Shown: piece by piece, positions 15,401-18,400 of the stretch
Position numbering within the stretch: position 1 is the stretch's first letter
How the letters are laid out: every line of letters starts with the position of its first letter
NCBI RefSeq assembly: GCF_021028975.2
Contig: NC_059437.1
Span: forward strand, 32,240,001 to 32,304,000
Reading direction: 5' to 3'
DNA: 64,000 bases
DNA from: Sphaerodactylus townsendi
Lineage: Eukaryota
Made by a program: the position numbers and the translations under genes
Notes under the pieces: generated by a model
What the model saw: the letters and a program-made list of their open reading frames with translations, nothing else
Database searches by the model: none
Told to the model about the DNA's origin: nothing

Positions 15401-18400
15401 TGAGTGGAAAGGTGGCTTCTAGCAGTCTGTATTCCAACCAAGAATTTGAACGTCAGGAGGGGTTTTAAAACTCTTGGCACACTTAAAATTTGCATTGCAA
15501 AAAAGAGAACCTAAAATTGTCTTGTTACAAGCCACCTTACGCGTCCGCGCAGCAGGGGTGAGGAGTATGAAGGGACCAGAAGGACCTGCCGAGTCCTTCA
15601 CTTCAAGCCCCACGCGCATGCTACCGAGTGGAGTGTATGAACAGTGTAGCTGTCTGACTGGCTGCTGAACCAGTGGGGGAGGAACACTTCTGTTCAGGTC
15701 AATCTGTTACAACGTATTGGACATTTACATTCACAGCATAAAATCTTTGGATACTTTGGGTGGTTAGCTGCTCCAGGGCAGCATGATTCCTAATTGGCAA
15801 AATTGCAGCTGGAGAGATTCTGAAAGAATTCTGTAAACTGACAATGGTAGCATTGAAAAGTCTTTTTGAACAGACATATGATGTTCAGCCTACCAGGTGG
15901 ACAGCTAACATGAATTGCACTTCACTGCAGCTTTTAGTGTGACTGGTATAGGCCAAGACACTGCGCCTGCCATAGGTTGCTGACTTCTTTATTTCAGAGC
16001 TCTGGAGACACCTAGTTTGAAAGTGTTATTACGTTTGCGAGAATTCCACTAAACATGGAGCGAAAATATATCTTGAATAAACTGCAATGTATTTCTTTGG
16101 TTATCGGTGCATTTGCAAGACCAAACCAGCAAAATCTTTGAAGCTGAAAGTGAAATGTTAATTTTTCTTTGGAAGTTTCAGAGCCTTTCTTCCAGTGTCC
16201 TGCATTTGCAGTTGCCCTGATTAACCCTTTCCCTTCTGCATGTCTCCCATGTTACAGACAAACTGCCCTCAACCCTATGTGTTAGACATATCCAAAGATT
16301 TTCAATTGCTTTGTTGAACTTTTTACTAANNNNNNNNNNNNNNNNNNNNNNNNNNNNNNNNNNNNNNNNNNNNNNNNNNNNNNNNNNNNNNNNNNNNNNN
16401 NNNNNNNNNNNNNNNNNNNNNNNNNNNNNNNNNNNNNNNNNNNNNNNNNNNNNNNNNNNNNNNNNNNNNNNNNNNNNNNNNNNNNNNNNNNNNNNNNNNN
16501 NNNNNNNNNNNNNNNNCATGAGAAATATGGTAACGGGTTTGTAACTGCCACAGCAAAACCATTTGCCTCCATGCCTGAATCTTCTGTCTTGTGGCTTCAG
16601 AAACAGCTTAAGTATTTTATGTACAAGCAAGTAATGTTAGAGAATATTTTATAGTCCTAGCCACAATTCTTTCAAAGAATAACGTTAAAGTTAATTTAAG
16701 ATGTAAAAAAAAATTGGAGATACTTTTTAGTTAAAGCTTCTAACTCTTCCTGGTTGTTCATTTTTTTCCTTTTTCTTCTTTGTTTGGATTGCAGCGTTCT
16801 GCTCTTCTGATGACGCGCTGTGATCCTGCAGTAGCGCAAAGGCTGCGCAGCGGAATTGCGCATTGCGTGCGATTGAGCCCTTTGTGAATGGCTGACTAGT
16901 TGATTCGTCTCTAACTGGATGGCTCCTGAGCACCATGCTGTATGCTTTTGGATTGAATTGGACTGTAAAGTGTTTAGACTTCATACACAAATTTAACACT
17001 CAAGTTTCTACATGGGCCTGTGTGGTAGATTAATCAATCTGGTTGGCTGTTCGTGGTCTCCAAGGGCATTCAACAAAGCGCAGCAGTTTGCAGCGAGGGC
17101 GCAGCGGCGTGCTGTTAGGGTGCGCTAGCGACTTCTTGCGCTTGCATTACAGGGACCTGAACCTTTGTGCAACCCTGTCATTTGAGGTTTTGGAGGCTGC
17201 AGTAAGTAGATAGGTCAGGGTTTTGGAAAATGGTAAGTTCAGAGTAGGAAATTAAGTGTAAAAATTCAACCTCTAGTGGCTTAAATCATAGGCCTTCCTT
17301 TTCAATATGTAGTTGGCAAAGAACTTCAGCTTTTTGTATTTTTTTAGAAAATGTGAATGGGGGTTGTATTAGGAGCACCTTGCTAGCTAAATTGCTGCTT
17401 AAATATGTGAGATCCTAGCTTCATTATTGAAGTATGTTGTGGATTCAGTAGGAAAGGTACTTCTAAAGAAGGAAGTGAGGTCATAGAGTGTTTCTGTGTA
17501 ATGGTCAGCATAACTGAGAATGGTGGATTTGCACTTGGGTTTTGGTTTGCGCTGGCGCAGGATCAACCAGCTGTTCACAGCGCATTAGTTTTGGCGCATG
17601 CTAGCCTATACTGCAGGATCACTTTTGGCTGGTTCGAGAAGGAATATTAACTGCAATTTTTCTCTCACTTTTCTTTTGTGCAAATATTCCCTTTCCCTGT
17701 ATCTACCCATCGTTAACCCTTCCAAGGCCTGTTATTTGAAGGCAATTGAGACTCAACCAAATTTTGCAGTAGCATGGAGCAATCTTGGCTGTGTGTTCAA
17801 TGCACAAGGAGAAATCTGGCTTGCCATTCATCACTTTGAAAAGGTAATTGTACATCTACCAAAAATGCGCCACATCTGTGCCCACGGCTTCCTCATTAAT
17901 AATGGATACATGATGGCATATCTGCATATTGGGCGGTTAATGAGTACATGAATAGACTTGTGGACCTAAATCAAGCAGTCTGTAATGAACAAAAAAAATT
18001 ACCTGGAGAACAGAAATGGAAATCTGGTTGTGGTGGGTTTTCCAGGCTGTGTGGCCATGGTCTGGTGGATTTTGTTCCTAATGTTTCCCCTGCATCTGTG
18101 GCTGGCATCTTCAGAGGTGTATCACAGAAGGAAGTCTGTTACACACTGTCCAGTAACACAGTAACAGACTTCCCCCTGTGACGCACCTCTGAAGATGCCA
18201 CAGCCACAGATGCAGGCGAAACGTTAGGAACAAGATCCACCAGACCACGGCCATACAGGCCGGAAAACCCACCACAACCAGTTGAATCGGGCCATGAAAG
18301 CCTTCGACAATACACAGGAATGGAAATCGTTGTTTGGTCCCATAGAAAATTTCCACTGATGGAAGGATTTCCACCAGTAACTAATGACTTCCTTGCAGCA

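Follow-up and report, generated by a model that had tools for sequence, protein, structure and literature searches.

A probably conserved long-range RNA helix in the second half of OGT intron 4 of Sphaerodactylus townsendi and its possible part in intron detention

The whole stretch of DNA analysed here (the window; 64,000 nucleotides) carries the gene OGT on its forward strand. Exon 5 (17727-17843) matches residues 178-216 of human OGT (chain 7yea), exon 4 (14722-14790) reads as 23 residues with AG/GT on both sides, and intron 4 between them (14791-17726) is 2936 nt long with GT and AG termini. Human OGT intron 4, which is 3271 nt long (PMC12017769), is detained in response to O-GlcNAc and carries a silencer and a decoy or poison exon (PMC5588854, PMC12017769, PMC7261177). 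Having the same gene, the same intron and the two decoy donors described in human (PMC5588854, PMC6097662, PMC7373989, PMC7261177, PMC12017769), intron 4 of the window is, judged by sequence, the counterpart of the mammalian detained intron. The stretch is present in a single copy in the 1.81-Gb genome, and a search of that genome found no paralogue. The exon 5 pattern was found at three loci in metagenome contigs and at none in genome contigs. Two of these loci carry less than 160 nt of intron, and the third, with 2009 nt, does not resemble the window intron significantly: its best blastn match (E 0.11) falls in another part of the window.

Several other features of the window may be mentioned. 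It is CpG-rich at about 6000-7100, 30000-32000 and 48000-52000, the first of which may be the OGT promoter. Long inverted repeats at 258-397, 18024-18281, 23070-23211, 32356-32478, 35090-35176 and 49427-49544 are probably miniature transposons; the one at 18024-18281 lies 180 nt 3′ of exon 5 and could form a hairpin of about 120 bp. In the OGT gene of a distant animal (locus L004, reverse strand), no long-range stem of the corresponding intron is stronger than that between intron positions 699-708 and 1935-1944 (10 bp, -19.2 kcal/mol); it too reaches a GC-rich patch, some 65-110 nt 5′ of the exon 5 acceptor, and may be a chance pairing.

The known decoy exon lies at 16384-16536. Its tandem 5′ splice sites (16529|30 and 16536|37) are present in the window and were located by the target of a published antisense morpholino (PMC7373989) and by a wild-type donor string (PMC6097662), and its start was set from the human length of 143-153 nt, the body being mostly N in the window. 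All the blocks treated below, A to G, are downstream of the decoy, in the second detained intron (1190 nt in the window, 1410 nt in human). Upstream, in the first detained intron, both whole-intron folds give nested helices of 15627-15655 with 15899-15926 a probability of about 0.9. A perfect 14-bp long-range match of 15740-15753 with 16289-16302, AT-rich and worth -15.2 kcal/mol, has a probability of 0.0 in one of these folds. The first half of intron 4 has a further conserved block at 15188-15205, marked by a published mammalian intron primer whose placement was equalled by 0 of 200 shuffles. An AT-rich helix of 16067-16099 with 16673-16705, predicted at 0.86-0.92 in both whole-intron folds, flanks the decoy exon and, rather than either long-range pairing of arm A considered below, is the candidate for looping this exon out.

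In the second detained intron, two short segments about 790 bases apart are complementary to each other: arm A (16815-16840) and arm C (17609-17622), the latter being the homologue of the human mOGT start region. The core of arm A, 16820-16833, is the exact reverse complement of arm C, with 14 of 14 Watson-Crick pairs and -26.2 kcal/mol (the A:C helix). An earlier note on this DNA had proposed the pairing, and both its placement of the sequences and the perfect match over 14 nt proved correct. How unusual is such a match? Among 2000 dinucleotide shuffles of 16814-17726, 8 contained a perfect stem of 14 bp or longer; among 500 shuffles of the whole intron, 16 did. The window contains 11 perfect stems of this size whose loops measure 50-1000 nt, and just two of them have loops longer than 300 nt, both in intron 4. 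The tile with arm A ranks 21st among 3774 tiles, scanned up to 60816, and most of the tiles that outrank it consist of short inverted repeats or have a very high GC content. A transposon origin of the helix was ruled out, as its arms are short and conserved, unlike the nearby long inverted repeats.

Conservation of the arms was judged from nine published primers aligned to the window. Four were placed where 0 of 200 shuffles were as good, one where 3 and one where 10 were, and the remaining three were not placeable (119-179 of 200 shuffles as good). A primer pair falling on 16805-16824 and 17590-17607 is from human or mouse, the text of the paper not saying which (PMC4901358). Its forward primer is identical to the window at 18 of 20 positions and covers five of the 14 core bases of arm A, reading ...GCGCTGTGAC, and human arm C reads ATGCTGCAGGGTCAC in a primer of the same paper (PMC4901358). 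The latter, the human mOGT start primer, is identical at 23 of 25 positions over 17608-17632, which includes all of arm C, and differs there by A-to-G at 17610 and 17618. One mOGT primer begins with what looks like vector, which we take to be a BstXI-type linker, and this 5′ portion was left out of the alignment. The human sequence at arm C with its two A-to-G changes had been given in the earlier note, and the mOGT cloning primer bears this out (PMC4901358).

These primers bear directly on the helix. The pair 16824:17618 is U-A in the window and C-G in mammals, a double change, and the other change in human arm C, at 17610, leaves U-G or C-G, that is, U-G at worst. All five pairs visible on both sides hold, out of the 14 in the helix. 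The long-range duplex with arm A that the earlier note proposed is supported and conserved to mammals, and more strongly than the note supposed: it expected G-U at 16824:17618 if the upstream arm was conserved, and mammals have C-G. The double change is suggestive of compensation at a level that is not significant: it is one of five pairs, both changes are transitions, and as a coincidence it was estimated at about 1 in 5, which is weak taken alone. Arm C is absent from the last 142 nt of a fish-like intron, and according to the cloning paper homology was not found in zebrafish (PMC4901358).

Why should arm C be conserved in this species? Coding for mOGT was ruled out as the reason here. The homologue of the mOGT start is ATA and not ATG, 119 nt from exon 5 and out of frame, so that no mOGT could be made in this way, though the sequence around it is so close to the human one. 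When the reading frame that covers arm C was used in a protein search, four candidates came up, none at E <= 10.

The helix was also examined in folding models, segments of about 1 kb being folded with four parameter sets in three settings (12 folds) and the whole intron being folded with the 187 N that it contains. The outcome depends on a putative cryptic acceptor just upstream of arm A (16740-16794), recognizable by a branch-point-like CTAAC, a long pyrimidine tract and CAG, with its AG at 16793-16794. The earlier note had reported an acceptor at 16794, which is present; it is a cryptic site separate from the published decoy, whose donors are at 16529/16536, and it is absent among the OGT rows examined in the tables of PMC12017769. 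When the acceptor is not in the folded segment, A:C has a probability of 0.97-0.98, and when 16770-16795 is held single-stranded, 0.86-0.99 under all four parameter sets. With the acceptor free it falls to 0.00 under three of the four sets and is 0.49 under one, because the acceptor pairs with arm A or with 17193-17207. The pairing with arm A is a 12-bp hairpin of 16786-16797 with 16815-16826 that would bury the cryptic AG; it is predicted at 0.85-0.99 in the whole-intron fold and, depending on the parameter set, at 0.02-0.99 in the 1-kb fold, and the mammalian C at 16824 mismatches it unless its unseen side has changed too. Another local hairpin named in the earlier note as a competitor, GCGCAA with TTGCGC (16834/16856), is there in the sequence and has a probability of 0.01. 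When the whole intron is folded, A:C drops to about 0, and keeping the acceptor open does not change this; when A:C is forced, the cryptic AG is just 8-28% unpaired. The models consistently rank A:C over the pairing of arm A with a second partner, block B, but are unreliable for RNA this long and give no proof that A:C forms. On the whole, A:C is probably a real conserved helix.

What might such a helix do? Our tentative reading, to which we would give slightly less than an even chance, is that A:C brings the decoy and silencer region close to the region of the exon 5 acceptor and helps to keep intron 4 unspliced. Of the 1190 nt that separate the decoy donor from exon 5, the helix would enclose 775, so that about 390 nt remain. 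It would end 25-45 nt before the branch-point-like words of an AG-free zone (17642-17726); the acceptor of exon 5, an AAG, follows these words at distances of 76, 59 and 10 nt. It is predicted to close a domain of nested helices, the most robust of which pairs blocks D and E. Binding of a U2AF-type factor at the acceptor at 16794 would favour the closed form, and the closed form would let spliceosome parts bound at the decoy contact the exon 5 acceptor without splicing. The decoy model has complexes that stall on the decoy interacting with the splice sites of the intron itself (PMC6097662), and such a bridge would favour this interaction.

The position of the arms relative to the silencer is of interest in this respect. 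The human silencer (ISS) comprises intron nt 1771-2297 (PMC5588854) and reaches 443 nt beyond the first decoy donor, and arm A lies 291 nt beyond the donor in the window. By distance only, arm A, in the 3′ half, and block D would thus be inside the ISS and arm C and blocks B and E outside it; the ISS end was not placeable by primer alignment (179 of 200 shuffles equally good). The ISS alone silences a heterologous intron, yet without a drug response, and the authors inferred further cis elements (PMC5588854). An arm A inside and an arm C outside the ISS would fit this behaviour. Among the deletions listed in the supplement of that paper, none takes out the 3′ part of the intron with the ISS kept (PMC5588854). 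Either element, the decoy cassette or the ISS, represses splicing in foreign introns that have no arm C (PMC5588854, PMC6097662); repression in itself therefore does not require the helix. Part of OGT retention is independent of the decoy (PMC7373989).

A doubtful alternative is that the helix is constitutive, compacting the intron and silencing a pseudo-exon by holding its donors in the loop, with no sensing of O-GlcNAc. Two GTAAGT donor-like sites, at 17202 and 17233, are inside the A:C loop and the acceptor at 16794 is outside it. An exon beginning at this acceptor would stay in frame with exon 4 for 30 codons and then meet a stop, so that 16795-17232 is a possible second poison exon. Pairs of conserved complementary regions (PCCRs) tend to obstruct cryptic splice sites (PMC8052449). 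Against a purely constitutive role speaks the location of the arms in or beside the elements that set detention (PMC5588854, PMC6097662).

The arms might instead be conserved as protein-binding words (GCGC, GATC, CTGCAG), the pairing being incidental to palindromes and no stable duplex forming in cells, which we consider unlikely. Arms A, B and C are indeed all built of palindromic words, and GCGC occurs 12 times (16815-17597) in 913 nt against 3 times in 7222 nt and 8 times in 11157 nt of the flanking gene, a density about 20-30 times higher; with such words and so much GCGC, extra pairings form easily. Many proteins bind OGT intron 4 (PMC13676730). A perfect 14-nt match, on the other hand, requires the order and the spacing of the words as well, and the double change at 16824:17618 removes the GATC palindrome from both arms, yet the pair is kept.

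The model of the earlier note, in which arm A switches between B and C and thereby controls detention, was found quite unlikely. Block B (17546-17583) does have the described complementarity to arm A, with 24 pairs, -39.8 kcal/mol and the internal loop and bulge, and A:B is more stable than 1000 of 1000 arm shuffles, a comparison in which the arms were picked after the fact and consist of palindromic words. B and C have GCAGGATCA in common, and B is transcribed before C. Nevertheless, A:B has a probability of 0.00 in all 12 folds, and forcing it costs 10.5-16.6 kcal/mol over the ensemble. It stands about 10 kcal/mol behind A:C; the two pairings are mutually exclusive, as in a switch of the ATE1 type, but are not of comparable stability. 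The mammalian C at 16824 also mismatches B at one pair unless B has changed as well. Nor could the duplex loop out the decoy exon, as had been supposed: the decoy donors are upstream of arm A, the exon ending about 285 nt before it, outside both the A:B and the A:C loop.

In the folds, block D (16883-16909) and block F (17134-17142) are both better partners for B than arm A is, and an ATE1-like network of competing helices, in which B would take part through D, is conceivable. Block D (16877-16905) can form an inner helix either with block E (17032-17067), in 28 pairs worth -31.9 kcal/mol, or with B, in 24 pairs worth -27.5 kcal/mol. D:E, the steadiest helix inside A:C, has a probability of 0.81-0.98 in 10 of the 12 folds and of 0.23-0.24 in the two in which D:B has 0.70-0.71, and its stability was matched by 1 of 1000 arm shuffles. 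Forcing D:B raises A:C to 0.94-0.99. Two GCGC-rich blocks, G (17078-17091) and F (17114-17146), are predicted partners of 16836-16848 and 17554-17605, with 0.5-0.8 under Turner 2004 and 0.04-0.59 under the other parameter sets. A conserved block between B and C (17590-17607), matched by a mammalian primer at 16 of 18 positions, is the predicted partner of F. A human primer is identical at 15 of 20 positions over 17103-17122 (PMC5588854); between F and 17590-17607, a double change at 17120:17599 keeps the pair and a change at 17117:17602 breaks it.

Very unlikely is a role of the helices in making the nuclear retained-intron RNA a structured, protein-binding non-coding RNA with splicing control secondary, since, although a nuclear non-coding role has been raised (PMC5588854) and the retained intron is reported to sequester protein (PMC13676730), the Rfam 15 covariance models gave a single, non-significant hit in 16814-17726 (E 0.76; 15.6 bits, the threshold being 55) and the location beside splice signals suits a role in splicing.

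Our reading of A:C as a bridge that helps to keep intron 4 unspliced may be compared with known systems. The papers on the human OGT intron describe splice sites and proteins and, in the parts available, no RNA helix (PMC5588854, PMC6097662, PMC7373989, PMC7261177, PMC12017769), whereas here a helix is predicted downstream of the decoy; 'structure' and 'base pair' do not occur in the main text of PMC12017769, nor 'secondary structure' in the available text of PMC6097662. The closest resemblance in form is to PCCRs or RNA bridges such as that of ENAH, which are likewise intronic, conserved, near-perfect, close to splice signals and accompanied by nested helices (PMC8052449, PMC10573301). A:C has near-perfect arms within one intron, is stable beyond chance at -26 kcal/mol over about 800 nt, and has both arms conserved as far as two points, the window and the mammalian primers, can tell; it may well work like a PCCR or RNA bridge, to judge from its sequence and the models. 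Unlike PCCRs of the ENAH type, it loops out no annotated exon and is located in a detained intron (PMC8052449, PMC10573301). Neither PMC8052449 nor PMC10573301 mentions OGT in its main text, and it is missing from five supplements of the former as well; a literature search found no paper describing a helix in OGT intron 4; the full PCCR catalogues may list the pair. The competing helices of ATE1 and the poison-exon PCCR of BRD2 similarly involve overlapping complementarities near an unproductive exon (PMC7797038, PMC10789245), which in our case are those of A with C, B or the acceptor and of D with E or B. Competition has been tested by experiment in ATE1 and BRD2 (PMC7797038, PMC10789245), whereas here it is suggested by sequence and models, with comparative support for A:C alone and A:B disfavoured in every model.

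Two questions are described as open in the literature: by what means OGT intron 4 senses O-GlcNAc, and in what way splicing is stalled by decoy exons (PMC12017769, PMC7261177). A further possibility, which goes beyond the bridge and which we regard as improbable though worth stating, is that the second half of intron 4 is a conserved two-state RNA switch responding to O-GlcNAc. With the acceptor at 16794 kept open by splicing factors, arm A would clamp arm C, the complex on the decoy and the ISS would dock on the exon 5 acceptor, and the transcript would be detained; once the factors leave, arm A would fold back onto the acceptor, the bridge would open and the intron would be spliced. Since the silencer on its own shows no response to drugs, a further cis element is to be expected (PMC5588854), and if the switch is true, A:C would be this missing element, giving the silencer its O-GlcNAc response. 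If the helix itself holds up, RNA structure would be added to the decoy model, and a reason would be offered for the conservation of the mOGT start region in species unable to make mOGT. The helix would then also become an antisense target for raising the expression of OGT, a gene already pursued for neurodegeneration (PMC12864184).
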